A stretch of 64,000 nt of DNA from Psammoneis japonica (taxonomy: Eukaryota): contig QPGO01000007.1 of NCBI GenBank assembly GCA_008632985.1, positions 496,001 through 560,000 of the forward strand. Reading direction: 5' to 3'. Made by a program: the position numbers and the translations under genes. Positions 7,601 through 55,656 of this stretch are shown one piece after another; positions within the stretch are counted from its first letter, which is position 1, and each line of letters opens with the position of its first letter. The notes under the pieces are model-generated. The model was not told where the DNA came from and ran no database searches. It was given only the letters and a program-made list of their open reading frames with translations.

Positions 7601-8107
7601 GCAGGAGCGAAACAATAGCAGAGGCACCAGCATGAGCTTTCGCGTGGGTGCCCGCATTTGCTTTTCTCTCTCGATTTCTGGCTGATTTCTTTTGTTCCAT
7701 GCGGCCTCCTGGATTTCTGAAAGCGTTCAAATCAGATCACTTTGAATTGCTGTTAGAGGAGGTTGGGTGGCATGGTTCGTTATTCGACACCCGGAAATCA
7801 ATCTTTCCCATTATCCCTTGCCAGGATTAGACAGCAGTGGCGCCACATTATTACAATATTTTAAAGAACAGACTTGTAAATACAATTTCTCTAGTACGGT
7901 GCAAATACATACATTTATTGCTTTTATTGGTGAATCAGCTGATCAGCTATTCATGGATAGACATGAAATTTTTAAAACATTGCTTAGACATCATTTCCAG
8001 CGACTCGTAGATCAAGGTTGGCACGACGGACCATCATCAATCGATCATCAATCATCAGAGTCATCGATGACAAAGATGGATTGAAGGTTCTTTGAGAGAG
8101 GGAGCCG

Positions 8108-9774
8108 TTGTCGAATTCATCTCGCTTGTCGAATCGGATCCCTGCAAATGCGAAGCATCATCACAAGATGACGATGAAGCTGGATTTTGCCAGGCTCGTG
8201 TTTTGTGGACGAAAGCAAGAGTTGGGCTCCCTCATGGATGCTTTCGATTCGACTTGTCAGCATCCACCATGTGCATTTGTTGAAGGAGAGTCGGGATCAG
8301 GGAAAAGCGCAGTGACAGAAGAGTTTCGAAGGCGTCTGCCACCCAACACCTTCTGCTGCGGCAAGTTTCTTGACGAGGGAAGGGATGCTTCTGAACCATT
8401 TTCTGCTGTTGTGGATGTCGCGCACATGTTGGCGAAGAGTCTTGTCAAAAGTGATGAGGCCGATTTGTTGAAAGAAAGGATCCAAAATGCTCTGCAATCT
8501 GATGTTCTCATTGTTGAAAGTGCAGTTCCCTGTTTGTCTGAATTGCTGAACGATGGCAACAAACCAGCCGAGATCCGAGAAGAAGCAGTGGCATCACAGA
8601 AGGGGCGGGCCTTTGACAGGTTAAGATTTGTGCTCAGAACGTTCTTGGCTGCTGTTTGCCTTGAAAGAAATGTTGTTTGTGCACTCAACAACATCCAGTG
8701 GGCTGGAATGGGTTCCGCCACTGTCATTGAAGCACTCCTGGAGAATTCTCAAGCAACAGCGCCTCGCAAGTTGATGTTCTTTGGCGCACACCGACCACTG
8801 ACTGTGCACGCTCATGTTGAGCAAATTGTTGAGAGACAAGGAGCCACAACTGTCAAGCCAAGCAGTCTGCCACACAGGAGATCTTGAGGTGACTGGTTTC
8901 CGTGCTCCTTTGAAGAGGCGACGATGAGGTGGGAGACCTCGCTGATGTCGTTCACCAGAAGACTGGAGGCAACGCTCTCTTCGCGGTGCAGTTCTTGCAA
9001 CTGTTGGAGCAGAGGGAACTCATGTGCTGTTTGACAACAAACTGTCATTGGGAATGGCACACAGATTGTGTCATTTCAGAGACGGGTGTCTCCAGCAATG
9101 TTCTTGATTTTGTTTCGGACAAGATCCAGATGCTTCCACATGACCAGCAAGTTGCGCTGGTCAATGCTGCCTGCCTGGGACTCACTCAGTTTGACTCATT
9201 GACAGTCTTTTCAGCATTGTCACCCCTGGAAAGCAATTTGGGCATCTCGCGAGATGTTGAAACAGGAAACCTTGAAGACTTGAATGAGATTCTCGGTGCC
9301 GCCGTCGAAAGAGGTTTTCTCGAATAGATTCGTCCTGGAGCATTCAAGTTTTGCCATGATGAAATTCGAGAAGCATCTCATGTGATTCTTGCTGATGATC
9401 AGAGCAGGCACACGATGCATCTGTCAATCAGAAAGAAGCTGCAATTGCGTTTGACTGAAGTTTCAAAGGGGGCAAGTGTGGACATCAGGCCAGATGATCT
9501 CCTTTTTCAGACGGCAGGCCAGTTGAGTTCAGTTTCGTCTCTCATTGAACACCTCGAGGAGAGGGTTGATCTTGCAGAGATTGACTTTGAGGCTGCAGCC
9601 CGGGCAATGGAGAGAGCCTCCTTTTTCCCAGCTTTTGATTTCCTTGATGCGGCAGGGAATCTCCTGGGACAAGATCCATGGCTGGACAATCATGATCTAA
9701 TGCTCAAGATTGCAATCGCTAAAATGAGGTGCTGTTGTTGCTGTGGCCGTCTTGAGGCCAGGCAGTGCTGCTGA
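8108..9774 (+). pseudogene. Decayed AAA/STAND-type P-loop ATPase (AAA_16-like, as in Ser/Thr-kinase-ATPase-sensor proteins)
   Basis: FCGRKQEL, Walker A GESGSGKS, EPFSA, LNNIQW, KTGGNALFAVQFL; frameshifts and in-frame stop at 9325; no Tyr in the three ORF fragments; TpA-depleted. Confidence 0.75.
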
Positions 9775-9924
9775 GTGGCCACTGCCAGCAACCAGCTGGC
9801 AGCCAGTGGAGCAAGCAGCCAGAGCTGCCATTGCCCTCTGCCAGCCAGCTAGAGAGGGCTGCCGGCATCAGTTTGTTGACATGTCAAGCAGTGGCCACTG
9901 CAGCATGGGCTGCTCTCTTTGTCT

Positions 9925-10880
9925 GGTTGCTGATGCCAACACCTGGCCACTTTTCTCTTTGCTGGTTGTTGCTGATGTTCAAAGAACTCAAACAGGAAAA
10001 GCCATTGTGCCTGGCCAGATCTCTGGCTTGGGCAAAGCCCAGAATTGTGGCTGCTTCCATTGTCATCACGTGTCAACACTTTGAGAAGAAAGAACAATTG
10101 TGTTTCTCTGCTGAGAGCTCTCTTTGTCCAACTGTGCTGACTCGCAGGGCTTTTTGCGTGCAGTGAGAGTGGGTCCACAAGACTGGCAACTTGGTTGTTG
10201 GGGACTTTGGCTGAGTGGTGAAAGCAGTCTTGCCTCCCCCCATGGGCCATTGTGGAATTTGAATGTGTGCAGTGTGGCCTGGCAGGTGCAAAGGCATGGT
10301 GGAACCTTTTCACTGGGATCTGGAAAGACACAGCTGCTGTTAGCCAGCCCTGTTCTGGCATCAACACACTTGGAGCTTGTCCAGTTCTCTCCTTTGCTTG
10401 GGCCAAACATCTTTTTCAGACTCTTCCCACAATGGAAGGGTGCAAAAAATGGCACAATGAGAAATGTCATCATTTGTGTTGACACGCAGACTTGGAGGCT
10501 CCAGGTGTCAATCTTTTGGATGAGCTTGCAACTCATGTTGATGTCACACTTGTGGTGTGTGGTGTGTCATGGCCTGTTTGAGCAAGTGCAACTGCAGATT
10601 GCATGGATTGTCCACACAAGAAACTGGGTTGAAGATCTGGTTTGCCATTGAGCACTTCTCTGTTCTCCTTCTTCTTGCTCAACTCATCGATGACATTGTC
10701 AAACTCTCCATTGCTGGCTGTGTGGGCAGTCTTTCATTCTGCAGCCTGCTCAGCTTTTCACAATGCTCTGCTGCTTCATGGTGAGCAGCATCATGTCCCA
10801 CAAAGAAGAGATGCCTCATGAAGACCAACTCGAGCAAACCAAACATGACCCAGCAGAATGATGAGTTGATTGTGACAGTG
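9925..10880 (-). pseudogene. Hypermutated duplicate of the 3' half and 3' flank of the Cys-loop channel gene (matches ~5507-6450)
   Basis: Direct alignment: tggctacttt>tggccacttt, gcctagctagatctctag>gcctggccagatctctgg, cagtagaacg>cagcagaatg; peptide INSSFYWVMFGLLE>INSSFCWVMFGLLE. Confidence 0.9.
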
Positions 10881-10889
10881 CTCTTGATG

Positions 10890-13550
10890 CAAATTTTTTT
10901 TTCAGTCATCTCCCATCCATTGGTGTGACATCATGTGCAGAGTGTTCGATGTGCACAGCGCAGCCTGTTCTGCTGGGCAAAACCCCTCAAGTCCAAAACA
11001 AAGTGTCAAGTTGAGTCACAAGGAAGAAATCATGCACTTCATTTCTGCCACATTGTTGGTGCTGCATTTGTGACCCTGACTGTTGGCTCTTAACTTGTTC
11101 AGGAATGCATGCTGTGTCATCTTTGGCACCACCACCAAATGCACCACAAGAGCATTTCCTGCAGTTTTGGAGCTGTGAGTGGCAGTGCAACTGTGACTCC
11201 TCTTCTTTGCACTGTGCTTGCACTCTGCTTGTTCTTGTGTGGGTTCTGCAGCACAGCAGCTCTGTGACAACTGTTGCTGTCTCCATCTGGTCTGCTCAAA
11301 CCATCCACCTGTTGGGGGACACAACACAATTCAGGGCCCTGCCAGACACTGGACAAGAAGAATCTGAGTGAGCTGTGACTCTTTTCCAGGCAATGGCTGG
11401 TGTCTGATCATTTCAGGCTCAATGCAAATCATGACTTTGCTTCCTGAAGTGCATGAAAGAAAATAAAGTTGTGGTGAGACCACTTGACATTTGAGCATGA
11501 ATGATGCTTTTCAGTGAGATGCACATTGTCTCCAAAGTCAGCCATGGTTGCTGCTTTCTCCTTCTTTGGTTTCCACATGATGCACAAATCTGTCACAGGG
11601 CTTTCACCCACCATGGGGCCACAGCTTCCAAGCAAACCTTCTTTCCTCTGCCAATGCCTGCAAAGACCTTGATGGTGGGATGGTCTCCTTCTGGATTCAA
11701 AAAGACCGTGTCAGAGGCTTCATCTGGCATGAGAAAAATGGGGTCATTGTGAAGCTTTCCAAAAAGTTGAGGATGAACCTTGTTGACAATTGTGCAATTT
11801 TTTATGTGTGCAGCAATTGTGGATGTCATTGGCAAAAAACAACAACAGCATCAACAGCACCTGCAGAAGCAACAGCAGGAGTGACAGCATCAGGCATGTG
11901 CCAGGACCAAAATGCAGGTGTGTGGCATTTGAATTCATGACAGCATCTGTGGGAAGCAGCAGAGCATGGAAACAACAGTGTGAGTTTGCAGTGTCTTGTT
12001 TTGCATGAATGACACCCGCAAGAAATGGAGTGATGATGTTGCCTGTTGTGCCAGCATCAGTGTCAACAGTGTCAGCAGGGTTGGTGTTCTGCAAAGGCAC
12101 AGGTGGCGAAAAATCACAGTGCATCATCATGGCAGTTGAGTCACATTGATGTGTGCTTTTTTTGTGGTTGAGAGAAAGGGGAAAATTGTTCTCTGCCACC
12201 CTTGGTTTCAAGCAACTTGGGATTTTGGGGGTGCTGTGTGTGAGATGGGAGCTCTCACTTGATCACATGCACACAACATTTGCAACATTGTGGACATGTC
12301 CCACTCAATGCATGTGGTGATGTCATCACATGTGCCATGCACAGCCACATCCCATTGTGCCACTTGCAAAGGGGTGGACTCAACAGGCATGGGCAGTGTC
12401 CACACCCACATGTGCATCAAAATGACACCCAAATGAGTTCAACTGTCTGATTTGAATTTGCACTTTGAAGTTGTTCATCTGTGATGATCTTCAGTGCCAA
12501 CGCAGCAGACCCCCACTGAAAAAAAAGAAAGATGGAACTGCAGTCATTCTGTCAACAGCTGCAGTGTTTGGCTGGAGCACGCGGTTGCACCTCAAGCAAT
12601 GAACTGTCCTCTGTTCCCCAAATCTTGCAGACAAGTGCACAGCTTCCTCAGATCTGAGACATTGCAGGCACAGCTTTTCTCTTCACATCAGCCTGGCCAC
12701 AGCAATGACAGAAGCTTTGCAAAAAAAATCAAAAGAAAATGGAGCAGGTGTGCTGCAGGCCTGGGTGTCAAACCTGGCATGTGAGAATGAGAAGTTGTGT
12801 GGAGATGTCTGAGGTGGCATGGGGGGCGGGGGGGCATGTGTGGAGGAGCAGCAGACTGCACAGCATGGTTGTTGGTGTCAGATCCAGGGTTAGAGCAGGT
12901 GCAAGCCTGAGTGATGGATGCAGCACAGCAGGTGTGTGGTGCTGCAACAATGGCTTTGCTTGGCTTTGCAACAAATGATGGCGCACAAGAGCACACGGGG
13001 TGGCTCTCATTTTGAGTTGATTGAAATGATGAGTTGATGGCTGTGTGTCAAAATCTGACATTGCATTGTGGCCCTTCTTGCAGCATCACAAATCTGATGT
13101 TGCCCCATGATTGGTGCAGTGCCATGGCAAAACAGCAGCAAAAATCTGACACTGCATTGATGGCAAGCTTGTGCAGCTCAATGTGCTTGCTGTTGTGTCT
13201 CTGTTGACAAGAGATGACTCATTCACTGAGAGCAATGAGTGTGACTGTGTCTTGGTTTTGGGACAAGATCAGTGTTCTCTGAACTCAAATGTTCACTTGG
13301 CAAAAAAATGCACACGCCGTTCTTGTTGAAAGGCCAGGTGCGCAGACAGATCACAAGAAAGAGGAGCTCTTCTCAAGGCGCACGGAGCACTGAAGAATGA
13401 CGGGGTGCACGTCTTTTCCATCATTGGAGTCTTGGGCCTCATGCTTGTCCATCATGACAAGACACTCTAGACAAGTCCTTTGGATTTGAATGAAGATGGA
13501 AACCAAGCCTCAGTTTTGATGTCAGGCCCTGCAGCAGACGCCGGGTGCGA
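10890..13550. repeat. Heavily decayed repeat/TE-derived block, family not identifiable
   Basis: Nearly devoid of both TpA and CpG, strongly TG/CA-rich; only fragmentary ORFs; boundaries approximate. Confidence 0.55.
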
Positions 13551-13940
13551 GGACAGCACTTCCCATTTACCGGCACTAGAGACGGGAGACAGGCAAGTTC
13601 AAATTTTCATTCATTCAAAAAATAACCATCCATAAATAAAAGAAAGAATGAACATATGAATAGATTATTCTCATTTGAAACGATACAAGTTTCAACCTTA
13701 TTGTAAGAGGATAACATTCTACATGGCTTCAAAATATACATTGGAAGTTTTTCTTCACTTCTACTATGGTACAGCACGGTACAGTATGTACGTACTGTCC
13801 AGCTACAGTAGAGTATCGTACGAGTAATAAATTTCAAAATTTGAAAAATTTGTTCGAAATTGTTTCCATCAACCTCCACATTTCTCTTAAAGAGACTCGC
13901 AAGGGTTCTCGATATTACTTTTTTTAAAATCTTTATCATC

Positions 13941-15640
13941 ATGAAGTGGCTCCCTGTTGGATCTTGCGTCTTTGGTTTCATTGCAGTCGCTGCCGTTCTA
14001 TTCCTCGCATTTTATGACAAAAATGAAACGGGAGAGCAGGTACGCAAGGGTCGCAAACGCAGGATATGCCAAAAAAATTCAAGCGTCTAACGTCTAACTC
14101 CTTTCCCTCTACTGTACCGTATTCATCACCTAACTTTCCCTTCAACATAGAGCGAACAAGTAACCAAGGTTCAAGTAGCTCGCGGAAAGCACAATTTGTT
14201 TCGTGTGCGCGAGAAAAATACGAAAGACAAGGAGCTAGGAGAGAAAGCGCAAGAGGAAGCAGATGACATGCCATTGCCCGATGGTACAGCAGCAAAAATT
14301 GGTCCTGGAGTTCGTGAGTCGGTGCTTGATTCTACCAACCGGAACAGTATTACTTCCCGACAGGTCGTCGTTGCACTCCAAGCCCCCTCAAGTGGAAGCC
14401 TCGCTGAAAAGAAAGCGGAGATCAAACGCATGCAAAACAAGGTGCTTAAATCGCTGGGGGAAGGATTCACATTATTGTATGCATATTCGTGTGTCCCAGC
14501 AATTGCTGGCATCATACATTCCGAAGCAGCCGTTGATACGCTTGCCAGAAGTCATATTGTTAGAAGAGTTGACGTGGACATGGAAACATCCGGGAGCCTT
14601 ATTGACAGCGTGCCAGTCATTAATGCCGACAAACGACATGAGACTGGTAATCGTGGAAGCGGAACCACCATTGCGGTAATTGACTCTGGCATCGATACGG
14701 ATCATCCCAACTTTGCTGGTCGCCTTGTGCATGAAGCATGTTTTGACATTTTGGAAGAGGATCCCCGTTGTCCAAATGGTTTGATAGAGCAAGTCGGACC
14801 TGGTGCTGCAGAAGATGAAAACGGGCATGGCTCTCATGTAACAGTAAGTGATCACTACTTCTTATCAATCCTTATATGTCTGATTTCTCATGCTTTGTCT
14901 CTGTCGACTCTGTTCATCGAATCCAGGGCATTGCAGCTTCCAATGGGTCAGACGGAGGTGTTGGTGTTGCACCAGATGCTCAGATTGTTGCTCTTAAAGC
15001 CACCTTTGGCTCTACTGGCACCGGTACTGGTTCCGTTGCATCATTTATTGCTGCGTTGAACTATATCATGGACAATCCTCAACTGAACGTGAAGGTTATC
15101 AACATGAGCGTTAGTAGCGGTTTGTTTTCTGGTGTCTGTGATGACGCAGATGCCTTAAGAATGCTCGAAGCTGAAGCAATCAATGCTTTGTACGATGAAG
15201 GAATCATAACCGTTGCTTCAGCAGGAAATCAAAGAAGTTCTACGGAAATGTCAGCACCTGCGTGCCATGGTAACGTTATATCTGTCGCGGCGTCGGACAA
15301 CGATGATAATGCCGCAGACTTCACAAACAGCAACCAGTTCACCGACGTGTTTGCTCCGGGTGTCGGTATCGAATCTTCTGCACCAGGAAACTCACTAGCA
15401 AGGTTTAGCGGAACCAGCATGAGCTCTCCAATGGTAGCTGGCTGCGCTGTTCTATTAGCTGAGGCTGAGGAAGCCACTTCCCCACAAGAAATCAAGGAAA
15501 GGTTGACAAGTTCTTTTTCCACCGTGACGGTTCCAGCCAGTGGTCTAACTTTTCCCCGGCTCGACTGTGATATAATGATAGATCCTCCCCCAGAAACCCC
15601 CATGTCCTTCTCGTACCGGTATGACTGGCTTGAAATTTAA
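13941..15640 (+). CDS. Subtilisin-like serine protease (S8) with N-terminal hydrophobic anchor/signal; intron 14844-14926; apparent frameshifts in the 5' region
   Basis: Catalytic triad motifs VIDSGID, HGSHVT|GIAA (across the gtaagt..ccag intron) and GTSMSSP; oxyanion ASAGN; N-terminus MKWLPVGSCVFGFIAVAAVLFLAF in another frame. Confidence 0.85.
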
Positions 15641-16049
15641 GAAATTGTCTGTGGAAGAAGCGACCGAAATGATTCGAGATTTTGTGCCATCAAGCTTCAT
15701 AGCAATTTATGGAGCATCAGTGACAAGGATTCAGAGATGGCGCAACACCTTGATGCGCTGTTTTGTTGCGAGAGCAATGAAAGAACGCATGTTAGTTGTA
15801 ACATAGCTTTTGGCATTTTCAGTTTTTGCTAGAAACATCTGTGTTGCGCTACACAGAATTGGTTCTCTTAAAACCATTTGTTGTTTTCTTACTCGTCACT
15901 GAAATTTGCCATTCTCCCAAGGAGGAGATTTTGCAATGTGCGAAGTATAAAGAGGGTGCCCGCCGAAGGCGGCCCAGAAGAATAAAAGGAGAGGAAGAAA
16001 AGGGGAAGAGAGAGAGAAAAGAAACAGAAGGAGAAATGGAGAAAGGCTT

Positions 16050-20560: not shown

Positions 20561-20851
20561 TTTAGTCACAGCTCTGTGCCTAACGCAACCCTCTGCTTCC
20601 GACCCATTTTGGTAAAAAGTAAAAAATGGGGGTTTGTGATTACACGTGGAAGCATGGCGTTGGGACCCATAGCAGATCGCAGAACGGCAAAATGAACTAA
20701 ACGGAACCATCAACAGACCTCCACTACCGGTATGAGCATACGCATCCGGTGATAGCTGGCGTGTGGCGTGCATGCTACTGTAGTCTACAACTTAACTTGT
20801 ATGCTCGTTTCAAATCAGAGTCGAGTTTCCCTGTCAGTGGTTTCACGTTAA

Positions 20852-24129: not shown

Positions 24130-24766
24130 GGGGTGTTGACCACGAATCACAAAGGAGCTGCCACAAAACTCTCTTTCACACTTTCAAAACCAAGAAGCTG
24201 TGTTTGCTGCGGCCAGCAAAACAAGAAGACCCGCACACCTGACAAAGACATTTGCAAGCTTTTGCACTTTGTCAGTGCATGTGCCTCACAACTTTGCAAA
24301 GACGCATCAAATGCAAAACAACAGCTCCCCACCATGCTTTCTTGCAAAAAAGTGCTGCACAGCATTGACATTGTTGTCAATGACAGTTGGCTGCCTCAAT
24401 GCCCATGAAGTTCCTTGGGCCCAACAGGGTGCCATCTTCAAGCTGGCACACAAAAACTTTGGTGGTGAGACACTTCTTGGCAAAACGATCTTTCCTGTGG
24501 AAGGAGGGGCACATCTCTCCCCTTTGAAAAGGTTTCAAAAAATGTGCTCTGCAAAGCAGTGCAGGTTTCCTCCATGTGCTGCTGGCTCTGCTGCAATTGT
24601 TGCCAGACAACAAACACAGGTTGCAGAGATTGTGCTGTGCAACAAGCAGTGGTTGGCAGACAACTGCTGCAACCCAGACAGTCAAAACACGAGGGTTGTT
24701 GCACCCAATGAACTCCACAAGCAGAGGCAGTGTCACACCAAGTAGATGCAGCTGCAAAACTCTTGG
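24130..24766 (+). pseudogene. Inverted, hypermutated paralogue of the 22461-22990 gene, interrupted by the Copia element
   Basis: DVCKLSYF vs DICKLLHF; LIGKTIF vs LLGKTIF; QTEVAKIMVCTREWLRKYYYKP vs QTQVAEIVLCNKQWLADNCCNP. Confidence 0.75.
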
Positions 24767-31420: not shown

Positions 31421-31424
31421 GGAG

Positions 31425-41364: not shown

Positions 41365-41380
41365 NNNNNNNNNNNNNNNN
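41365..41380. other. Assembly gap (16 N) within a G run
   Basis: N characters in the sequence. Confidence 1.
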
Positions 41381-43273: not shown

Positions 43274-44428
43274 ATGAAGCTTTCACCTCATGCAACCAAC
43301 GCTAAAACTTCGTCAAGGCAGGAGAAAATCGTTCCTCAACCGCTGGAATCGAACTCCGAGCCGAAGAGCCTCAAACCGAGCCAGTGCCTCAAGATGGAGC
43401 AACGTTTTCATCCCGAGAAGAAGGACAGCCGCACCTGCACCATCAATGTCGAGCACTACAAGAAACAAGGTGTCCCCAAGTTCATCGAATTTCTCAAGAG
43501 CTACGATCAACTTCCAGTGGGCCAGAACATCAGGAAGCAATCTGATGAGTTTCGTCTCATGCGTGTGTTGCTCCAAGGAGACGCTCTACGTGCTTTCGAG
43601 AATGCGGCAGCGAACCTTGAAGACGAATCTGCAGAAGGAAGCTTCGAGAAATGCCTGCAACATCTCACGAGGCATGTGTTTCCCAAGAACACACTTTCGG
43701 TGCAGAAATGTTATTTGCGTCGTGATCTCAAGAAGCCGGAGTCCATGAAAGTGCGCGAAATTGCTGCTTGGGTCCAGGAAGTCAACGAAGACCTCAAGTT
43801 CCATCCTCCCTTTGGGAAGGAACAGAAGATTGAGGACGACGAGCTCAAGGACATCCTCTTCAATCTTGCACCTCGAAAGTGGCAGCGTCAGTCGACCGTC
43901 CAGGGTTTCGAAATTTTGAAACATGCCCATGACGAGTTGGTTGAGTTCTTGGAGCGCCTGGAGGTCGCAGAAGACACATTCGATGGCATTCATGCCAAGG
44001 CTGATGGCAGTGGCGGCACTGCATCAAAAGCCAAGAGTGGTTCCCAACGTGGTTCCAAAAATGGTCACCAACATGGCACCGAAAAATCTCAGTCCGAGAA
44101 GTGGTGCATTTCATGCGAGAAATCCACTCATAACACGGACAAGTGCTGGTCGATCAAAAGACTTGCGAAAGAACGCTGTGGGAACTGTGAACCCGACCTG
44201 AAACGGCGCCGTTCAAATGGCAATTGCACGTGGTCTCGTCGCGATAACGACAACGCCGCTCGCAAAGAAGAGTTGAATGCTGTGGCGATCCAAGCAGTTC
44301 AAAAAATGCTCAAAGCGAGTTCCTCGAACAATGACAAAAAGCACAAGAGCAAAGATTGTGATTCTGATGCCCTTGACGAGGAGAATTGTCAGTTTGAAAA
44401 AATGATGCGCAGTGATTCTGAGGAATGA
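43274..44428 (+). pseudogene. Gypsy gag with Zn-knuckle-like CISCEKSTHNTDKC
   Basis: Open frame directly after the 5' LTR and upstream of pol. Confidence 0.8.
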
Positions 44429-44524
44429 CTTGCACCGCAAGAGGAGTCTTGCACTCTGCTGGACATTAGGAAGCCCAGAAAAAGGGCCAAAGCAATTCAC
44501 ACTAGTCCAGCAGTCGTCGCCTGC

Positions 44525-47500: not shown

Positions 47501-47600
47501 AAATTAGAACAGCCCTGTGTTGGACCGCACGCAACAACAACGGCACACGCCAATGGCACAGCACAGATCAAACGCGGACAATGCCATTTAACGACTGACT
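44525..47600 (+). pseudogene. Gypsy pol (protease, RT, RNase H, integrase)
   Basis: LLDGGTS; LDLNMGHCH, RLPMG, CIDDVL; RNase H HANASNSQLGAV, TDHKNL; integrase HPGMNRT..CETC, VDLIGP, DRGSEF, NPQANAIVER; in-frame TGA at 46589. Confidence 0.93.
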
Positions 47601-50600
47601 CCAATGTGCAATTGGGGAGGCGAGTGCAACATGCGTTGTCACGCACGTGTTGTGTGTGTGTGTCCATGTGTCAAACAAAAGTGTGTTTCAATCGCACGTC
47701 AATCGTGGGTTCGTACGAAATGCAGATCGGTCACACAGAAGTGATCGGATGTCGAGAATCGCAAATGCGATTGCACGATGATGTTGACATCTCATGTGTC
47801 AACATCAATCGTGCCCGGACAATCTGTCATCACGATCACATTCTCCAAAAGGCCTTTTGTCTGTGGGAGCAGTGCAAAAGGTTTGGGCTGTTGAGAACCC
47901 ATTCGGAGAAACCCAAAATGATTGCGTGGAAACAATTCTTGCAATTTTCACTTTTTGAACTTCGTTCTACTTTCGTTTGCACTCGTTCTTCGAGCACAGT
48001 GCACCTTGTTGACTGACACTCTGTTTTTTCAGCTCCGCCGCCTGCCGAAGCTTCTGGCATGAATGACAACGCCGCTTCTGCCTTTCCCGTGTCTGCCACA
48101 CCCGAAACGTTTCCCAACCCGACTGGCACAAGAGGCAATGATGTCGCTTTGTCCCTCATCAGCCCCAAACTGACGAAATCATTTGGTGCCAACTGACACC
48201 ATTTTTGTGTTGCTGTGCAGCGCCTGCCACTCATTCTGTCACCAATGCCAACGCTGTGACCAGCGTTGTGGCAGATGGCACCCCCGGTGCCTTTCCTGCC
48301 ACACACGGTCCATCAGGCAATGACACATGCATCGTGCATTGCTGTTGTGGTTGGATTTCCCGCCTTCTGTTGTTGACATCAATCAGGAGAAGGGGCGCGC
48401 TGGTCGCAGCTTGGGCATGGCAGGGTGCTTCTGTCAACTGCACCTTTCCCTGGAAACGTTCATGCATTTGTTTCTTCGCATTGTGGATCCTTCGGAGGCC
48501 AAGGTCTCGGCGACGTCTGCTGCTTTGGAGCTGCAGGATTTAATGCAAGTGCTTTGGATTGTCGTGTTGCCCATGTGTTGCTGTCAGGCTTCCTTTGAAG
48601 TGTTGCCATCGCATCCTGCCTTCGCCGCGCATGTCGACCCGTCCTCATTGCCTCCTTGCAATGCATGCAGCTGTTGCCATGGCACCCATGTGGCACTGCA
48701 TCCCGCTTTGAATCGACGCGGGGTGGTTTCCATGCTTTTCAATGTTTTTGTGCATGGCCCTCATGTTGTCAAGACAATGCGATTGGTTTCCACTGTGGTC
48801 GCTGACGCAGGGGTGATCACAAGTCATCACAAGTGATCACAAGTCATCAACAGCCCTCACGACTCAAAACATAGAAAGGCACATGAACAAACAATTCATC
48901 TCGCGCACTTGTGCGCGGTTATTCGACTGTGTAGGTGTGTACACGTGTGTGAGGTGTAAGTAGAATATATGTAGAATTACTGCTGAGTGAGTTGACATGC
49001 GGTGGATTTTCCGCCGGTACACAAGCTACGTGGTCTACATGAAAGATACATTATGTTAGTCTCTGAAGCTTTTAGATATTATAAAATTTTGTTATGCTTT
49101 TAATATATACATATAGCAATTCAAAAATCTTACAGAACACCCCGAAAGAACTCTGGAATCTGGATAAAAAAAATTTCGATTTAACGTCCCGAACTGGGTC
49201 GCCCCGAAGCGCTTCTCAAAATGTTTACAGATTGGATACAGTAAAACATCTACTATTACCAAAACAGATTCACTATCGAATAAATAGATAAAATGTTCTT
49301 CGCGCGCAAACAACACGATAACGCCCAACAACACCATGGCGAGCAACGCGAGCGGCGTTCACTGATCTACAAGCAGGGAATACGAGATACTATTGAAGTC
49401 GTTGGACAATATTTATGTGCTGTATTCATGGGTCAAGTTGGGTTTCTTCTCACTGGTTGTTGTCGCGTCATTTTACAACGCCGTGCTCTTCTGCTTTGTT
49501 GCATCTACCGGTACGACACTGTGCTGCATCTGCTCGCGCGCCACCGAACAGCTTTTCCTGCAGGGTATGGCTAGTTGCACGGCTGAATCGAACCCAAACG
49601 TGCGCGACCAACTAGCCCTACCCCAGCTAACTCATAAACAGTATTATGTATGTTCTTCACCAAAGAAGACTAAATTTAACGGATAACCGTTACAAACTAC
49701 ATAACACCATTGACAAAAATTTCCGTTGCATTTATATAAATATTCCTACACAAGATTTTAGCCACTGGCTAAGACCCTGTCCAAACTGGACCATACCTGT
49801 ACATACCTGACGTCACGAAGCCTTTTTGCGGACGTCACAGGGTCATACCCATGCAGTGCTTTCCAAACTGCATCATACTTTTATGCATACCCCCACTTCA
49901 TCCATACACGAATATGTTGCATCTCTGATTTTATATATTTTCTGACTGATGAAGGTTGATCATTTCACCAGGGTGTTAAACGAACTACATCGATGAAGTT
50001 GGAATGAAACAGAACAAAAACACACGACGAGAGCGACGACACCATGACGACGAGAACGCAGCCATAAGGCGGCAATAAGCCAAGTAAAGGATACAAATCG
50101 ATCATAATATTAAACTTATGTATGACTTGTGTATAATCAACTTCACTGTATGAGTGTCTGCAGCGGATTGATTGAGAGAATGTTCAGGAAAAATGCTGCG
50201 TCGTGATGAGACAAGAACGGCACGCAAAGCGACCCAAACACAGCAAGTGCCTCATGTATGATGAGGTTGTGGGTTGTTCTTGGAAAAGGTACAGCAATGT
50301 GCACTTTCGTTGCATCAAAAACGCTGCTTCTGGGTCGTCTCGTGTGTCGACTCGGGGGTGTGGTGTTTGGGGCATGCCATTTTCGAGGAACACTGTTCAC
50401 CCCAGAACAAATCAAGATTTTGGGGGGGTTAGTGACTCCACGAGAGGGGGGGAGGGGAGAGGAGAAAGAAGGAGGAAGAGGAGAGAAAGGAAGGAGAGAG
50501 GAAGGGGTTGCGAGGGCAGCGAGCTTGATCTAAATTGCGGAAGTGGTTTGAAGAGCGATCCTCACTTCTTTCTCCCTTTTCACCACCCGATGTGTCAGAT

Positions 50601-52356
50601 CTCCGGGTGCTCGCATGTTGAAGTAATTTGGCGTGGTGACACCGATGAGACATTGCAGTGTTGAAGCATCTCTGGCATGAATTTTGCACAGAAATCTACG
50701 CAATTCAGGAGTTTCCCTCTGACACCAAACAAAAAATCGACCATGACAGCTGCAAGAGCCGGCAGTTGAAATTGTCGCCGTCACTTGTGATGCTGCCGTG
50801 ACAACAAAGCACGCATTAAAACTCTCTCTGACAAACGAACACACGAAAAGAGAGGTGTGAAAAATGTGAAAAATGGACAAGAAATGCGTTGGCACTTTTG
50901 CCATTTTTAGAACTCGTCTCTCACTCTTGCGTTGCAATTTCTGTTCGTTCTTGACAGATTGAAGAGCCCTCCTTTAAGCATTGAGCATCAATGGCGTCTC
51001 GTGCGCTGATGTTTCGTGCTGCAATCGTTGTGGTTCCAGCCGACTCTTCTCCAGTCGTCAATGAGGGTTTGCCAGTCATCGGGGTGGCGTTTCAGGATTT
51101 TTGCAGTGTCGCTGCTTGCGGCGCTGCCTCAGGTGCCATTGACACGCTACTTGAAGAGACTGATGGCCATGCATTGATTGTGGGTGCGGTTTGTGTCGTT
51201 TTTTTATCTACAATCTACCACTTTGGCTGGAAAAGTCCGCGCATGAGCGGCAGACGAGGTTGCCCTCGTCTTTAAATGGCACGGGCCACTGCCGAGGTTG
51301 CTGACTGCAGCAGCGCCTCGGCAATTTTTTTCTGCAATGATGTTCATGTGGCCCCACCTCTGAATGTTGAGACGGCTGATGAGAGCCAAGGGGTTGCTCC
51401 CCGGTGAGGCATTGACTGGTGCTTCCAAGGACGGGAGTGCCTTCAATCGCCGCAGACCCGAATCTCCGTTGCGACAGGGTTCACCTGCCCTCAAAGGTGG
51501 TTTGGATTGTCAAAGTTTTGCAGCTGGGTGGCACAGGGAGCAGGTGGCACTGGATCAGTTGTGCAGGAGCATGGGAGTCTACGGTGTTGGAGCAGCTGGT
51601 CGTGGTTCTGTTGCACTGCAAACATCACTTTTGTCCTAGAGCTCATCTCTGTGGCATTGTTTCTGACTTCAGTCATTGACAGCGTGTTCCACAGGGCACG
51701 CAAGAACAACGGCTGCTTCAGCTCTTACGACCACTGCTGCAACTCTTGTGACTGCTGCTGTTGTTGCGACTGCTGCAACTCTTGCGAACCCGGCTAAAAA
51801 CAAAGGTTGTTGATGCTGTTGGAGTGCAGGAATCGGCAGCGTTGAAATAAAACAGTGAATCAAAAACTCATGCATGGAATGTGCCCAGCAATGACAACAT
51901 CCACCTTCTTGACTGCTGTCTCTTTGGGCAATCCTTAGAATGCGCTGGTCGACCTCTTGGTCGGCACCCCGTCACGCTGTAGCTTTGCTGCAGCTTGCAT
52001 TGCAGGAAAGCAGGACAACAGTGCGGATCAATGTCTCGCTTCCTTTGATCTCGTGTTGGATCATCAAGAGTTGAAAGAGCCGGTTGCACTTGACATGGAA
52101 CAGATGGGAGGGCTGCACTCATGCTCGATGCAAAAGCAAGCTGTTGCGAGAGGGTGCTTCTCATGGCTTGCAACATGTTGAACTGCTCCTCGACTTGAAC
52201 GTGAGCTGCATCAAGCAATGGAGTGGCATCCATGCACACAGGTTCAACCGTCACCTCGGGAGCCATCGCAATTTCGACAATGCCGCTTGCAGGTTCAACG
52301 GTTGGCGCCGCTGCAGTTTCCCCATCGTCACGGTTTCCAACTTCTGATCTTGTTGT

Positions 52357-55206
52357 TCACTTGCATGGATTTTGCACCGGTTTCGTCCCACAGAGATTGC
52401 ACATGCATCGATCTGTCTCGGGGTGTGGAGCAATCGTTTCATTTCTTGCATTCTGCTCCAGCAGGTGCTGGGACAAGAAACGCTCGCCGGTGTCCTCCTC
52501 GAGTTCCCTTGCATTCGGATGTGGCGCTTTCTTCCCCTTTTTTATTGCAAGGTTGTTGATTTCAATTAGATCAAGTGCATTCCGATGAGCAACCACGCCC
52601 CGAAAGTCGCATGGAATCTTGGCTCGCGCCGTTGCATCCATTTTCTCGATTCGCTCCTTCTCTTCAATTGTTTCATTGTGCAAAACTAATCCTTCCAACG
52701 CAAGCAAGTCCATCAATGAATGTCTCATTCCGCAATTTCCACAATGTGCCAGTGAATCGTGTGCCTTCTCCAATTTGGATTCTGGTCCTAGCAGCGTTCG
52801 CCACTTTGCCAGTTTTGCTTTCGACCACAGGGACGGCGCTGCTGGCCAGCACTGCTCCGACTTTGGCACTGGAGTGTCCAATCCCTTGGAGGTTTCTTTC
52901 GCATTCAAAATTGCATCCTTTGTGTCGGTTGCAAACAGTGTTAGTCCACTGTCTGGATCCAGCCGTCCTCCGGCAGCGGGGGCTCCGTCGGAGGCAGTGC
53001 ACTTGCATCGAGCAAACCAATCCTCAAGCAAAGTGAGCCTTTTCTCCAGCGGGTGCCTCCAGAGATGAATGCATTCCTGGCAGTGCTTCCACCTTGAAGA
53101 GTGGATGACATCTTGTGTCTCCTCGTCAGAATGCTTTTTGTTGTTTAGAGTGCCATCCTTCAGGGCTTGCATCACAGCTTGGCAGTCGGACCACTCGGCA
53201 CACGATGCGGTCGCCTTAAGATCACTTGCAGCTTGCCAACAATCAGCATGCTCTTTTCGGAGCGTTCTTACAATTCGATGCATCCAATGAAAGAGCCCGA
53301 GCAGACAGATTGGGTTCATTCCGAAAATTGTCTTCCACAGCTGCGACTCATGCGGCCAGGTGTCGCTGCAGTGGATTTTCGGTCGCACGTTTTTTCGCCT
53401 GGCAAACTGTTCTGCCGTGTGAGCAAAATCTTTTGCTTCCAATGTTGGGGTTGGGCAAGCGGTTCCTACCTGCCCCTTTTCATTGCACATGGTGAACAGG
53501 CCAGCTGCTCCACCTGCTTTCTTTGAGCAGTTTTTGAGAATCTGAAAAGTGTGATCGGATGCGACACTCACGGTGGCTCCAACCATCTGTGTTGATCTCG
53601 TGCACCTGTCATGCGAGGACGTGGCCAGAGCTGTCAATTTTGATTTGCCGCTTTCGTCATAAAGATCGAGAAGTGCAGAGCCTGATGGACTGCACCCGCC
53701 CATCCAATCCTCAAAAGACACCCAGTCTTCGGTTTTGTCTGTGGCTCGGTCACAGTGTTCTTTCTGGAGGTCCTTGAAACAGTCGACTCGCATTTGGTGC
53801 AGCATGTGCGAGAACTTGTCCCCGCCTGAGCACGTGACAACAATGGACTCAAGGAGTCTTGTAGTTTCCTTGGTGAGATGCCACTTGTTGGTTGCACTGG
53901 CATGCTCAGGCAACGTTGGATGTGCTGACTGCAGGCTTTTTGGCAGCTTGTGCAGCAGTCGACCGTCGTTGCCCTTGCATCGAATTTTGCATTGATTGCA
54001 TTCGCACCACATTGACACCGCCATGTGCGTCTTCCCGCTGATGCAACACATTGGTGTCGCCCCACCGCATCGAGTGAAGTCCATGCGGTCATGAATCATT
54101 TCACCGTCGCACTCTCCGTCAATGCAGGGGATGCAGATGTTGGGACAATTCAGCTCCCAACAAACAATGTGCATCATCACACCTTGCAGCTGATGGCAGC
54201 AATGATCAGGTGGCAATGTGCAGTCATCCTTGGGAACTTCAAATGACATTGCACCAGGAGGAAAAGTTTCATCCTCAAGCTCCAGCATCTCGTTGAGCTC
54301 AACACTTTTTGCTGTAGCCACAGGACACTTGTTGCTGCCTTGCTCGAATCTGGGCTTGACAGAGTCCAACAGACAGCTGATGAGAGCACTTGCTGCAGCC
54401 GGGCACTTCGTCCTCTCCTCGGAGTTCTCGCATTTTTTTGCTCTTGCTCGAATCTCTTGTTTCAAAGTCTCAACCGAAAATTTTGCAATGGCGGCTGCCT
54501 TGCAAGCATTGTCCGTGTGCTCCACGGGGCCTGCAGCACCAGCCACCCCCGAATTCACCGGCTTGCAAACATTGGAAACACCTGGAGGAGGCAATGTGAT
54601 GCGAGCTTCAGGTCTCTGCGCTCCAAAATGGCCTTGCATGGTCGAAACTCCCTCAACTGGGGCAGCCGGAATCGTGTTGTTCGTTTCGTGCAGCTCTTTG
54701 TCACGTCGCTCTGCATCCATGGCAGCTTTGGTGACATTCACTTGCGAGCACCTTTTTGAAAATTTACATGTGGGATCATGGCCATGATGACATGTGGGAC
54801 CTCTCTCACATCTCTTGCATTTCTTCATTCCGTCGTCTGCTCTTGCCACCTTGCGCCCACTAAAATCGCTCTGATGCATCCGCTTCTGGCGTGTGTGCGC
54901 TTGGCTTTTGCTCGTTTTGATGGAGCCTTTGCGTTTCTGGGATTGAATGCCCATGTTTCTAAAGAAAGGATGCAGCTGCCGCTCTTCGGCCTCTTTTGTT
55001 GGAGCAGATTCTTCCGCTGCGTCCGTCATCATCGAAGCACCAGCAGAGATTGTACTTTTCTCTCTCGCAGGTTTTTTTTGTGAGAGAATTTTTCTCATCG
55101 CGTGAGAAGTCTGTGTTGTTGTGATTTTCCGTGGTGCGAAAGGAAGATGACAGTCGGTCTCCGCATCATTCTGATTCTTGTGTCTGCTTTTGGAGAGTTG
55201 TCTCAA
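52357..55206 (-). mobile_element. DDE DNA-transposase-like ORF (949 aa; Mutator/hAT/P-supergroup-like), hypermutated; the element probably spans ~50.5-55.3 kb
   Basis: VASDHTFQ, TMCNEKGQV, IHCSDTWP, GLFHWMHRI, ESKLEKAH motifs plus Cys-rich zinc-binding segments; only 1 Tyr in 949 aa; superfamily is my inference, TIRs not identified. Confidence 0.65.
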
Positions 55207-55656
55207 CCTCCTCGTCCCTGAGTGATTGCGTCAGATTTTCCAAAAAAGTGTTGATTAATTAGTCGGAAAGTCCTCGACTTTCCGAGGGTCTCCCCCAAGC
55301 AGAAATCCCAAATGCTGAATTCTGATTGGCTCTCGTAGCGCCATTCCTAATCCTCCCTCGATTCAAACAAAAGTTGGTATGGCCTAAAATTACGTCATGC
55401 ATAGGGCTAATAACCATTAATTTTTTCGAAGAGGCTTATTTTCGGCTCTATGACGTCAGCTATGTACATAGGTATGCATGGTCCAGTTTGGACAGGGTCT
55501 AAAATCATTCGGTATGTCCCCATACAGTGCCGATGGCATCGTCGCCATCGCCTCTCGGCATCTCCTCTATCTTCGTCCCCTTCTTTCCCACCAGGCATTA
55601 TCTCTTTTCTTCTTCTCTCCGTTAATTGTTTCGACAAGAAAACCAAAGAAATACTG

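Follow-up and report, generated by a model that had tools for sequence, protein, structure and literature searches.

Four TpA-poor blocks of transposons and repeats

The window analysed here, a 64-kb stretch of Psammoneis japonica DNA on contig QPGO01000007.1, carries four transposon-rich blocks in which depletion of TpA with an excess of TG and CA is real and extreme. A sliding-window dinucleotide check of the 64 kb (1-kb windows) gives an observed/expected (O/E) ratio for TpA of 0.00–0.2 inside the blocks versus 0.4–0.9 outside, which bears out the four TpA-poor, TG/CA-rich blocks proposed in a sequence-only reading of this DNA. Pooled over the blocks as first drawn (39,572 bp), 197 TpA are left (O/E 0.08; TG 1.65, CA 1.65, CG 0.55), where about 1559 would be expected at the frequency of the flanks (23,949 bp pooled, 944 TpA, O/E 0.58; TG 1.15, CA 1.20, CG 0.93). 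Block edges determined from TpA positions lie at 8009–13567, 15984–20562, 23034–48871 and 50150–55255, within roughly 300 bp of the earlier coordinates, and the transition at every edge takes at most 100 bp. Decay of CpG to TpG or CpA runs parallel to the TpA loss, a feature overlooked in the sequence-only reading. CpG depletion is strong in the older blocks (O/E 0.12–0.30 across blocks 1 and 2 and the sequence upstream of the Copia element) and milder in younger elements (0.87 in the Gypsy element).

Block 1 (8009–13567) is an essentially TpA-free block of repeats and pseudogenes, with 10 TpA in the 5459 bp of 8009–13467 (O/E 0.03; CG 0.28, TG 1.72, CA 1.85). Its segment at 11.3–12.0 kb has a word depth of 664x in sequencing run X1, compared with about 60x in the flanks. 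The block includes an open reading frame (ORF) for an AAA_16 (STAND-type) NTPase (8096–8884, + strand; Pfam E 1.5e-18) with no Tyr among 263 residues, and a hypermutated copy (9925–10880, +) of the 3′ part of an ion-channel gene and its downstream flank. This copy is 77% identical to an unmutated duplication partner at 5502–6450 (+; TpA O/E 0.5–0.9), which overlaps an intact Cys-loop channel gene (5961–7331, − strand; Neur_chan_LBD E 1.8e-26) encoding 20 Tyr in 457 residues. Block 2 (15984–20562) consists of TpA- and CpG-free repeats with no recognizable domain: 15984–20437 retains 8 TpA in 4454 bp (O/E 0.03; CG O/E 0.12), and word depth in run X1 reaches 1400x at 18.7–20.0 kb. Within it, 20014–20161 is a decayed copy of a promoter-region fragment at 7538–7689.

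Block 3 (23034–48871) is a nested transposon cluster with TpA O/E of 0.02–0.2 except at one island. A Copia-type LTR retrotransposon (24766–31669, +; RVT_2 E 3.5e-8) is bounded by LTRs at 24766–25011 and 31424–31669, has pol ORFs at 27365–30232 and 30236–31189, and shows O/E values of 0.11 for TpA and 0.61 for CG. An unclassified repeat, R, is present as copy 1 (33537–36152, segments A to D; 85–94% identity to 42475–42857 and 48002–48800) and as copy 2, into which a Gypsy-type LTR retrotransposon has inserted (42859–48003, +; LTRs 42859–43237 and 47625–48003). The Gypsy ORFs span 43193–44425, 44429–46588 (reverse transcriptase and RNase H) and 46592–48013 (integrase), with Pfam matches to RVT_1, RT_RNaseH, Integrase_H2C2 and rve; TpA O/E is 0.15. 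Between these elements lies a SET-like ORF (36957–38162, +; Pfam SET E 3.9e-4, below the gathering score) with no Tyr among 402 residues.

The island is a 389-bp MITE (35501–35889) with 30-nt terminal inverted repeats that are 87% complementary. It splits segments of R copy 1 that adjoin in the other R copy, and it is unmutated, with 30 TpA (O/E 0.96) and 28 CpG (O/E 1.56) between 1-kb flanks whose TpA O/E values are 0.02 and 0.12. The MITE may simply be very young.

Block 4 (50150–55255; TpA O/E 0.12 and CG 0.71 over 50200–54765) carries a 957-residue ORF (52360–55230, −) that belongs to a repeated eukaryotic family of DUF6729 type with 841 homologues at E ≤ 1e-3. Among its top eight homologues, seven lack a Pfam family and one has a weak DUF6729 match. 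Atlas comparison places it with DUF6729 clusters at 0.93–0.97, and Mutator and KDZ clusters score just 0.77–0.80 and so count as leads. The ORF probably encodes a transposase.

Loss of tyrosine from open frames

Tyr is nearly absent from the long ORFs of the blocks, as had been counted earlier: 3 of 956 residues in the Copia pol ORF, 1 of 720 in a Gypsy ORF and 1 of 957 in the transposase-like ORF; the ROCO gene, by comparison, has 23 in 966. Of the altered motifs claimed in the sequence-only reading, HVDD (30287, in Copia, where YVDD is expected), CIDD (45623, with a second at 42158), GHCH (45455), CSRKL (46133) and EKEPLST (46178) were located, and neither YVDD nor YIDD occurs in any frame of the 64-kb window. 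At 20 columns where Tyr is conserved, the Gypsy element has 1 Tyr, 10 Cys, 7 His and 2 Phe; at 11 such columns, the DUF6729-type ORF has no Tyr, 6 Cys, 3 His, 1 Phe and 1 Ser. Control homologues keep Tyr at 17–26 of 20–26 columns (Gypsy) and 8–11 of 11–13 (DUF6729 type). Because a change of TA to TG or CA creates no stop codon and removes TAA and TAG, dead elements retain long open frames.

TpA sites are mutated in place

The cause is mutation of DNA in place, after integration or duplication, which converts TpA to TpG or CpA; this follows from the mismatches between the Gypsy LTRs, the mutated gene copy beside its untouched partner and the loss of conserved Tyr. All 51 mismatches in the Gypsy LTR pair are transitions, and 44 lie at former TpA: at 19 dinucleotides one LTR has TG where its partner has CA (38 positions), and 6 mismatches are TA against TG or CA, with 5 further mismatches at CpG and 2 elsewhere. 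Per base, TpA changes at about 320 times and CpG at about 12 times a background that consists of two changes only, and TpA changes at about 27 times the CpG rate. The same pattern recurs in the Copia LTRs (20 mismatches, all transitions; 6 discordant TG/CA dinucleotides, 1 TA/TG, 6 CpG, 1 other) and between copies of repeat R, where 16 of the 26 mismatches in segment A come from 8 discordant TG/CA dinucleotides (3 TA against another dinucleotide, 4 CpG, 3 other). Each TpA site is altered once, on either strand, and CpG decays more slowly in the same blocks.

The channel-gene duplicate displays the same conversion against an unmutated reference. None of the 28 TpA of the normal copy is kept (13 are CA and 11 TG), and its 43 CpG have become 21 TG and 15 CA, with 3 kept. 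As the sequence-only reading anticipated, A>G is enriched at TpA (11/28, 0.39, compared with 0.08–0.15 in other contexts), as is T>C before A (12/27, 0.44, compared with 0.04–0.08 elsewhere). In the promoter-region fragment (aligned columns 17–128), 6 TpA yield 4 TG/CA and 8 CpG yield 6, with none of either kept. The proposal that A>G and T>C changes at TpA strike both strands of integrated DNA holds for LTR elements, the DUF6729 element and host-gene fragments alike. Its description as ‘RIP-like’, in the sense of triggered by duplication, is not supported, given that the in-block copy alone is mutated, the partner gene is untouched and the MITE has escaped mutation despite lying within a block. 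Hypermutation is restricted to transposon and repeat blocks with sharp edges, and capture by a transposon may be the only reason why the gene fragments were mutated.

The left edge of block 1 (7949–8008) is polymorphic in run X1. Four of four consecutive variant sites (7949, 7958, 7986 and 8008), each a TpA in the window, read TG or CA at 35.7 of 62.1 depth; inside the block, five of five full-depth differences are CpG>TG/CA. Both observations are signs of ongoing activity, although the edge variants could instead reflect an old allelic difference.

The preferred site is TAY

Survival of TpA depends on its neighbours, ranging from 0 (ATAT, CTAT) to 0.67 (TTAA), and an NTAN context model gains 82 lnL units over one uniform rate. 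Across 25 informative events of known outcome, letting the nucleotide just 3′ of the altered A decide yields lnL −12.5, whereas a model based on the −2 base yields −29.0. Four of four pairs of related metagenome loci agree. In three of these pairs pooled (L012/L047 was excluded because L047 already occurs in another pair), the nucleotide that follows the altered A is T in 19 of 41 events, C in 19, A in 3 and G in none. The preferred site is thus 5′-TAY-3′ (RTA on the other strand), YTAR is slow and TTAA is slowest.

These metagenome loci come from microbial mats, where TA-poor, TG/CA-rich patches occur in 10 of 80 DUF6729 loci. Loci L023 and L047 are 94% identical; 20 of the 24 TpA of L023 are TG or CA in L047, with none in reverse.

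A candidate editor and its alternatives

The explanation we favour, with somewhat better than even confidence, is post-integration editing of TpA by an element-targeted, TadA/ADAT2-type DNA adenine deaminase, with CpG lost through 5-methylcytosine. TadA and ADAT2 target A34, always after U33, and the natural TadA site is UAC, whose 3′ pyrimidine fits the TAY preference. A TadA/ADAT-like enzyme is the leading candidate editor. The established substrate of TadA and ADAT2/3 is the tRNA anticodon loop rather than chromosomal DNA, and we know of no natural enzyme that erases TpA from chromosomal DNA. No deaminase domain was found among the Pfam domains of the 64-kb window. Such an editor would produce inosine at TpA, which replication would fix as G, and would be directed to foreign or repeated elements by a sequence- or element-specific signal, rather than by simple position or pairing of duplicates. 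CpG decay would be ordinary 5-methylcytosine deamination on the same silenced elements. Transposons would be irreversibly inactivated through replacement of Tyr by Cys or His and through loss of TATA-type and AATAAA-type signals.

A considerably less probable alternative is that T is the base attacked, with a TET/JBP-type or other enzyme modifying T in RTA of marked elements to a product such as 5-hydroxymethyl- or 5-formyluracil that mispairs with G and yields T>C. Indeed, the symmetric spectrum allows TA>TG to be read equally as T>C on the opposite strand, A>I on one strand and a T change on the other look alike in sequence alone, and the context rule is stated equally well as RTA. 5-Formyluracil does mispair with G, and 5-hydroxymethyluracil is abundant in some protists. 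However, we know of no system with near-complete T>C at a dinucleotide, and a preference for TAY recalls the U33-A34-pyrimidine site of TadA.

The sequence-only reading also listed Pol eta-like WA>WG synthesis, here error-prone repair drawn to heterochromatic repeats, which we judge improbable. Pol eta does produce A>G at WA motifs and favours TA. Yet AA is spared in the gene duplicate, where A>G after A (5/53) equals that after G (5/65) and falls far below the TpA values. TpA is altered once with clean neighbours (2 of the 51 Gypsy LTR mismatches are at neither TpA nor CpG), and the LTR pairs contain zero transversions.

Editing of transposon RNA or cDNA by ADAR before integration, such that copies arrived already mutated, is very improbable and largely refuted. 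A preprint discussion notes that ADARs prefer a U immediately before the A they edit and target double-stranded RNA derived from repeats (10.64898/2026.01.13.699255). However, TG and CA outcomes are intermingled along a single strand and show no run structure (p 0.34–0.85), and 19 TG/CA differences separate two LTRs of one Gypsy element. Mutations are likewise present in a gene fragment, a promoter-region fragment and a transposase-like element, and the polymorphic edge sites lie in flank outside any element. Moreover, ADARs prefer G 3′ of the edited A, and the 3′ neighbour here is Y.

It is scarcely credible that a base modification at TpA was misread by the sequencer or assembler, even though no platform is on record for either the assembly or run X1. 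Strand-specific misreading predicts mixed TG/CA reads everywhere and shattered k-mer contigs; instead, single run X1 contigs of 2.5–3.7 kb pass unbroken through the blocks at 55–66x word depth (one, record 2, spans 3692 bp with 4 letters differing), weak independent support given that the run may share its sample with the assembly. The MITE within a block reads normally, and the same signature appears in metagenome assemblies of other projects and in the Illumina mutation-accumulation data of the preprint (10.64898/2026.01.13.699255). The block letters are real. An equally slight chance attaches to inherited composition or selection (families that were always TA-poor, or GC-biased gene conversion), which is refuted by the gene duplicate, by LTRs that were identical at insertion and now differ at TG/CA sites, and by Gypsy columns whose Tyr is kept in homologues; A and T outside TpA are unaffected, which excludes a general W>S bias.

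Relation to known systems

The process is not undescribed, as had been supposed, since the same TpA>TpG/CpA hypermutation is reported for integrated NCLDV and virophage DNA of Bigelowiella natans in a 2026 bioRxiv preprint (Mettrop et al., 10.64898/2026.01.13.699255). According to its main text, 230 of 231 mutations in two hypermutable regions of mutation-accumulation lines were A>G/T>C, all of these at TpA, at about 1000 times the background rate. An ADAT2 homologue is the candidate proposed there, with DNA activity cited for amphioxus BjADAT2 and Trypanosoma ADAT2. We infer that the P. japonica process is of the same kind: in both, nearly all changes are A>G/T>C, confined to TpA and to foreign or integrated DNA (about 10^3-fold over background in B. 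natans), leaving TpA-poor, CpA- and TpG-rich clusters that in B. natans are enriched for RT and DDE domains. In B. natans, however, the process was seen live in mutation-accumulation lines and viral inserts are mildly depleted (Rho TpA 0.45), whereas here it is read from near-saturated LTR retrotransposons, the DUF6729 element and gene fragments (O/E 0.03–0.15). As far as we know, TpA-erasing DNA editing as a genome defence has been reported only in that preprint, for this one alga. Flanking context and CpG are not mentioned in the main text (10.64898/2026.01.13.699255). Analysis of the P. japonica locus adds the TAY rule, the escape of TTAA, CpG co-decay, an unmutated partner copy and an unmutated MITE, together with the same signature in 10 of 80 related microbial-mat loci.

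Fungal RIP likewise hypermutates genomic transposons and repeats irreversibly through transitions, prefers a particular dinucleotide and leaves compositional blocks with sharp edges. RIP, which requires a C5-methyltransferase-like protein, changes C to T at CpA, creates TpA and stop codons and mutates both duplicates, whereas here TpA is destroyed, no stops arise and the partner gene is untouched. AID/APOBEC and ADAR enzymes also restrict mobile elements by deamination and leave clustered transitions. However, APOBEC works on cDNA, where it converts C to U (G>A) with a strand bias, in contrast to the A:T changes here, which follow integration and affect both strands. ADAR edits RNA and can mark the genome only by way of retrocopies, whereas non-retroelement sequences are mutated here too. 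Deamination of 5-methylcytosine at CpG sites of silenced transposons would account for the CpG>TpG/CpA loss seen alongside (about 12 times background) but leaves TpA alone; of the two processes converging on TG and CA here, it would be the slower.

Sharply bounded blocks nearly free of TpA

Four blocks of the 64-kb window (49% G+C, with a single 16-N gap at 41365–41380) are nearly devoid of TpA. In 1-kb windows, the observed/expected ratio (O/E) of this dinucleotide is 0.00–0.2 in the blocks and 0.4–0.9 outside them, flanking genes included. The pooled blocks (39,572 bp) carry 197 TpA (O/E 0.08), where roughly 1,559 would be expected at the flank frequency, and have TG and CA ratios of 1.65 each. 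The pooled flanks (23,949 bp) carry 944 TpA (O/E 0.58), with TG and CA at 1.15 and 1.20. Block edges derived from TpA positions lie at 8009–13567, 15984–20562, 23034–48871 and 50150–55255, essentially matching the coordinates proposed in an earlier sequence-only reading of this DNA, and are sharp to within 100 bp. At the left edge of block 1, a TpA occurs every 5–30 bp through position 8008 and the next is found at 8622; the remaining edges are alike. The earlier reading was right about the loss of TpA but did not stress a parallel depletion of CpG, whose O/E is 0.12–0.30 in older-looking parts, 0.6–0.7 in the Copia element and the DUF6729 block, and 0.87 in the Gypsy element.

The blocks consist of transposon and repeat sequence. 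Block 3 includes a Copia-type element (Pfam RVT_2), a Gypsy-type element (RVT_1, RNase H and integrase) and an ORF with a sub-threshold match to SET, and block 1 includes an AAA_16 ORF; Pfam searches of 76 further block ORFs returned no families. Self-comparison of the window recovers both LTR pairs, two copies of an unclassified repeat (repeat R), one of them interrupted by the Gypsy insertion, and two decayed copies that derive from the sequence of an adjacent intact Cys-loop channel gene. A 957-aa ORF at 52360–55230 (minus strand) has 841 homologues; the eukaryotic family in question is repeated and matches clusters of DUF6729. The protein may be transposase-like, with Mutator and KDZ transposases appearing only as low-scoring leads; a profile search of the PDB with this family's alignment gave a chance match only (E 0.034).

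Loss of TpA also distorts the reading frames of the blocks. The density of TAA plus TAG on both strands falls from 36 per kb to 7 per kb, and because only TGA remains to close frames there, stop-to-stop ORFs of at least 150 aa number 67 in the window, the majority in the blocks and without any Tyr. With so few TAA and TAG left, spurious long ORFs abound in the blocks, and true domains there score below Pfam thresholds; either effect can lead the annotation of genes and transposons astray.

At 1277–5212 (minus strand), two long ORFs (650 and 661 aa) share one frame with a single stop between them. They have no Pfam match, contain 0.8% and 0.3% Tyr, and lie in sequence with a TpA O/E of 0.3–0.5 and near-normal TG and CA; they could represent either a low-complexity protein or mild TpA depletion. 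Within blocks 1 and 2, the stretches at 11337–12003 and 18674–20674 are very high-copy, internally repetitive sequences: their word depths in the public sequencing run X1 are about 660x and 600–1400x, against about 60x in the flanks, and many X1 contigs meet at 19.0–19.9 kb.

TpA is mutated in place to TG or CA

The two LTRs of a retroelement are identical at insertion. Those of the Gypsy element (379 bp) now differ by 51 mismatches, every one a transition (51/51). Thirty-eight of these lie in 19 TG/CA discordances, where one copy has TG and the other CA, the state that independent resolution of an ancestral TA in the two LTRs would leave. A further 6 oppose TA to TG or CA, bringing the mismatches at TpA-derived sites to 44/51; 5 oppose CpG to TG or CA and 2 are elsewhere. 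The Copia LTRs differ at 20 positions, again exclusively by transitions (20/20), comprising 6 discordant dinucleotides, 1 TA/TG, 6 CpG and 1 other difference. No transversion is present among the 71 LTR mismatches of the two elements, and the copies of repeat R display the same mismatch pattern.

A gene duplicate at 9925–10880 gives the direction of change directly, through its normal copy at 5502–6450. None of 28 TpA is kept (13 became CA and 11 TG), and 3/43 CpG are kept (21 became TG and 15 CA). Substitutions tabulated by dinucleotide, as the earlier reading had suggested, reveal the enrichment of A>G at TpA that it anticipated: A>G affects 0.39 of sites after T and 0.08–0.15 after other bases, and T>C affects 0.44 of sites before A and 0.04–0.08 elsewhere. 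In a second duplicate (150 bp), none of 6 TpA is kept and 4 are TG or CA.

Encoded proteins carry the same imprint. At 20 columns of conserved Tyr in an alignment of 60 Gypsy homologues, the window element has 1 Tyr, 10 Cys, 7 His and 2 Phe, whereas 12 control homologues keep Tyr at 17–26 of 20–26 such columns. The DUF6729 ORF has no Tyr at 11 conserved columns (6 Cys, 3 His, 1 Phe and 1 Ser), where 10 control homologues keep Tyr at 8–11 of 11–13. Recounting in the ORFs and frames of the window reproduced the Tyr counts and motif readings of the sequence-only reading, and its central proposal of TpA-specific hypermutation is real, borne out by LTR pairs, gene duplicate and Tyr columns alike.

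Rate and sequence context

About 44 ancestral TpA are estimated for the Gypsy LTRs, of which 6.8% survive per copy. This corresponds to roughly 2.7 hits per TpA, 0.10 per CpG and 0.004 per other site. The TpA rate thus stands, per base, at about 320x background and at about 27x the CpG rate, where the background amounts to 2 changes and indicates orders of magnitude only. On the same two-change background, the CpG rate is about 12x, a value typical for methylated CpG. The decay of CpG to TpG or CpA in the blocks fits the pattern expected of 5mC-driven decay in silenced repeats (about 10x background).

Survival of TpA depends on its neighbours. Block-to-flank densities are 0 for ATAT and CTAT, 0.01–0.04 for GTAT, ATAG and ATAC, 0.17–0.30 for CTAG, CTAA and TTAG, and 0.67 for TTAA, and a four-parameter context model improves on a single rate by 82 lnL units. 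Because survival alone cannot tell which neighbour matters, 32 events of known ancestor were used, 25 of them informative. With the rate governed by the nucleotide 3′ of the mutated A (T > C > G > A), the model reached a lnL of −12.5, compared with −29.0 for one based on the −2 base, which was rejected; the 3′-base model is also the better one in metagenome pairs. The preferred site is therefore 5′-TAY-3′ (RTA if read as T>C), and Tyr disappears because its codons, TAY, are optimal targets by definition. No runs of TG or CA outcomes, as processivity along one strand would leave, were detected along the sequence (p 0.34–0.85), so sites seem to be hit singly on either strand rather than in long single-strand tracts.

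Spared sequences

Two sequences are spared. The duplication partner at 5502–6450 has untouched TpA and carries an intact, apparently functional gene, so that duplication does not set off the process in both copies in the way it does in RIP. A MITE at 35501–35889 (389 bp; its terminal inverted repeats are 30 nt long and an internal one 19 nt) lies within hypermutated repeat R and is unmutated, with 30 TpA (O/E 0.96) and 28 CpG between flanks whose TpA O/E is 0.02 and 0.12. The window contains no other copy of it. Either the insertion of this MITE is very recent, or certain elements or episodes are singled out, with no spread of the process across a chromosomal domain.

Read support and variation

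The altered letters are present in reads. X1, whose kind was guessed as DNA and whose platform is not on record, has 95% of the words sampled from 5000–14999; it may come from the assembly's own sample and is to that extent weak as independent support. Its contigs, at 55–66x word depth, cross the blocks with the same TG and CA letters; one of 3692 bp spans 8174–11864 with 4 differing letters. At the left edge of block 1, positions 7949, 7958, 7986 and 8008 are TpA in the window and TG or CA in 35.7 of 62.1 X1 depth, so that, among the variant sites listed (40 of 61), 4/4 consecutive ones at the edge are TpA>TG/CA. Inside block 1, all 5 full-depth differences among the same listed sites are CpG in the window and TG or CA in X1. 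These differences fit a process still active at block edges and a CpG decay still under way, but they may alternatively be old allelic differences.

X1 also differs from the window in other ways. Over 13612–14736, one X1 contig omits 1123 bp and has 31 other letters instead, which points to an alternative allele or a structural variant directly upstream of a subtilase gene. Within 5417–7930, X1 differs from the window at full depth at 6763, 7070, 7350 and 7635 (among the sites listed), where a second run, X2, agrees with the window. The two runs share the same coded sample, and X1 and X2, or the assembly and X1, seem to be slightly different genotypes. X2 looks like spliced RNA and covers gene parts (9/30 bins) but not blocks 1 and 2, a distribution that is not evidence of silence.

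The same signature in microbial mats

When metagenome contigs were scanned with the DUF6729 alignment, 80 loci were recovered, mostly from microbial-mat metagenomes. Their G+C content is 46%, and their median TpA O/E, 0.58, is close to that of the window flanks. Ten of these contain patches of at least 800 bp with TpA O/E of at most 0.15 and TG/CA of at least 1.5, located at L056:201–2600, L046:1–2300, L069:2001–3900, L072:11001–12600, L041:1801–3100 and in five other loci. The 11 copies checked form a graded series that starts from unmutated sequence (TpA O/E 0.5–0.6, Tyr about 4%) and has locus L056 at its heavily mutated end (TpA O/E 0.13, with 0.3% Tyr, 6.1% Cys and 4.3% His).

Direct comparison of copies reveals the direction of change here too. 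Loci L023 and L047 are 94% identical and have 47 differences: 20 are TA in L023 and TG or CA in L047, with 0 in reverse, and the remainder are 10 TG/CA discordances, 1 CpG and 16 others. The 3′-base context model is preferred in 4/4 metagenome pairs. Among 41 events pooled from 3/4 pairs (L012/L047 was left out because L047 is shared), the position 3′ of the mutated A holds T in 19, C in 19, A in 3 and G in 0, and the surviving sites are chiefly TTAA, TTAG, ATAA and CTAG. Searches of the window against the 80 loci gave no blastn hits and tblastn matches to transposons only, which indicates that the metagenome contigs come from a different genome. A scan of metagenomes with Gypsy pol found no relative.

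Relation to known systems

The sequence-only reading considered this a candidate undescribed defence system, but one has since been described in Bigelowiella natans (Mettrop et al., bioRxiv 10.64898/2026.01.13.699255). According to the preprint text, 231/302 nuclear mutations in mutation-accumulation lines fell in one integrated NCLDV and one virophage; 230/231 were A>G/T>C, all 230 at TpA, at a rate of about 6e-7, roughly 1000x background, in some lines only. The B. natans genome is reported there to have 124 TpA-poor clusters rich in CpA and TpG, and 324 TpA-poor coding sequences in which RT and DDE domains are over-represented. A term search of the preprint text as available returned no mention of flanking context or CpG, and in the full-text literature we found no other report of a TpA>TG/CA spectrum.

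The process described here resembles that of B. natans in being almost exclusively A>G/T>C (all LTR mismatches are transitions), in its restriction to TpA (24/28 ancestral TpA became TG or CA), in striking mobile or foreign DNA while host genes retain normal TpA, here with sharp block edges, and in a rate orders of magnitude above background. Our rough excess agrees with the 1000-fold figure of the preprint to an order of magnitude. De novo events were recorded in the mutation-accumulation lines, whereas here the four listed edge sites offer only a hint of them. The window thus adds a second case, and a much more strongly saturated one, to a process first described in 2026 and known from that single preprint, and the mat metagenomes are probably a third case. 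Evidence beyond one alga suggests that TpA-directed genome defence is widely distributed.

Fungal RIP is a process of another kind. RIP converts C:G to T:A, mainly at CpA, and thereby makes TpA, whereas here TpA is destroyed and CA and TG accumulate, the opposite polarity to which the sequence-only reading had drawn attention. RIP also mutates both duplicates, whereas here only one of the channel-gene pair has been altered.

Mechanism and alternative explanations

These results demonstrate that an editor acts on integrated DNA, striking every TpA a single time, preferring TAY while sparing TTAA, leaving no strand runs and keeping to elements with sharp edges. Its action is about 27x faster than the CpG decay that accompanies it and creates no stop codons. 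Any candidate enzyme is constrained by these properties.

TadA and ADAT2 enzymes target an A that follows U, with UAC as the natural site of TadA. Adenine would be deaminated to inosine by a predicted TadA/ADAT2-like enzyme and so give A>G. This proposal draws on the A>G chemistry, on the site just described and on the activity of ADAT2 on DNA in two organisms, cited by the B. natans preprint (10.64898/2026.01.13.699255), which itself proposes an ADAT2 homologue as the editor. An editor of this type would be a nuclear deaminase that carries the HxE...PCxxC motif and acts at TAY in DNA; Pfam detected no deaminase domain among the ORFs of the window. Because the partner gene and the MITE are spared, targeting would proceed through an element-specific signal, for example a small RNA or a mark deposited when the element is recognised.

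The chief competing explanation is that T in RTA undergoes a mutagenic modification; the sequence alone is compatible with an event at either base of the pair. Error-prone synthesis by a Pol eta-type enzyme, also a candidate in the sequence-only reading, predicts WA>WG changes at AA as well as TA, along with transversions. This is contradicted by the frequency of A>G after A (5/53, versus 11/28 after T) and by a set of 71 LTR mismatches free of transversions. ADAR editing before integration would produce A>G on the transcript strand of retro-copied sequence only. Instead, TG and CA outcomes are interleaved, the LTRs diverged after insertion, and gene fragments and the DUF6729 ORF are affected as well, upholding the earlier view that the process is strand-symmetric and extends beyond retroelements. 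Inherited composition is contradicted by Gypsy LTRs that were once identical and have since acquired 19 discordances, and by homologues that keep Tyr. Biased gene conversion does not account for A>G and T>C concentrated at TpA (0.39 and 0.44) relative to other contexts (0.04–0.15). Misreading of a modified base would be strand-specific and yield mixed calls at every site, which is incompatible with the X1 contigs.

A broader reading, which we put forward tentatively and consider somewhat less probable than not, is that TpA-directed DNA editing is a widespread protist genome defence. It would be saturated in this genome, probably of a stramenopile and possibly of a diatom, and be found in at least one uncultured mat eukaryote, with a natural TAY-directed DNA adenine deaminase guided by a sequence-specific signal at individual elements, as the spared partner gene and embedded MITE suggest. 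TadA was the starting point from which laboratory adenine base editors were evolved, and to our knowledge no natural DNA adenine deaminase is known; such an enzyme would for that reason interest both biology and genome engineering.

Genes of the flanks

The flanks contain normal-looking genes for the channel, a subtilase, a histidine-phosphatase-like protein with short introns, and TIR, PapA_C-like and Roc-TIR proteins. Several long genes of the window are single ORFs of 457–966 aa, and short introns occur in one gene. Since genes of B. natans are intron-rich and its proteome is public, the window is probably not from that species and is perhaps from a stramenopile. Scans for Rfam families and tRNAs gave no hits. 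Two genes searched against 5.8 billion protein clusters had no near-identical match, the best being 66% and 35% identical. The closest named relatives of the searched genes are from the diatoms Fragilaria (38%) and Eucampia (32%) and from Ectocarpus (32% over 18% of the query), and the ROCO gene has 2 hits only. An Atlas search with the subtilase brought up no informative taxa, and clusters looked up for 8 selected proteins bore no names.

The subtilase gene (Peptidase_S8, 14151–15637) comprises two overlapping frames, 14151–15056 and 14852–15637, reflecting either an intron or a frameshift. An immune-type gene cluster at 55414–63926 adjoins a transposon block and encodes a TIR-domain protein (55414–57453), a PapA_C-like acyltransferase (57634–59067) and a Roc GTPase-TIR protein (60383–63280, minus strand). 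Immediately upstream of the last gene is an 84/168-bp tandem array (63368–63756) that, from its 28-residue period, we would guess encodes leucine-rich repeats.
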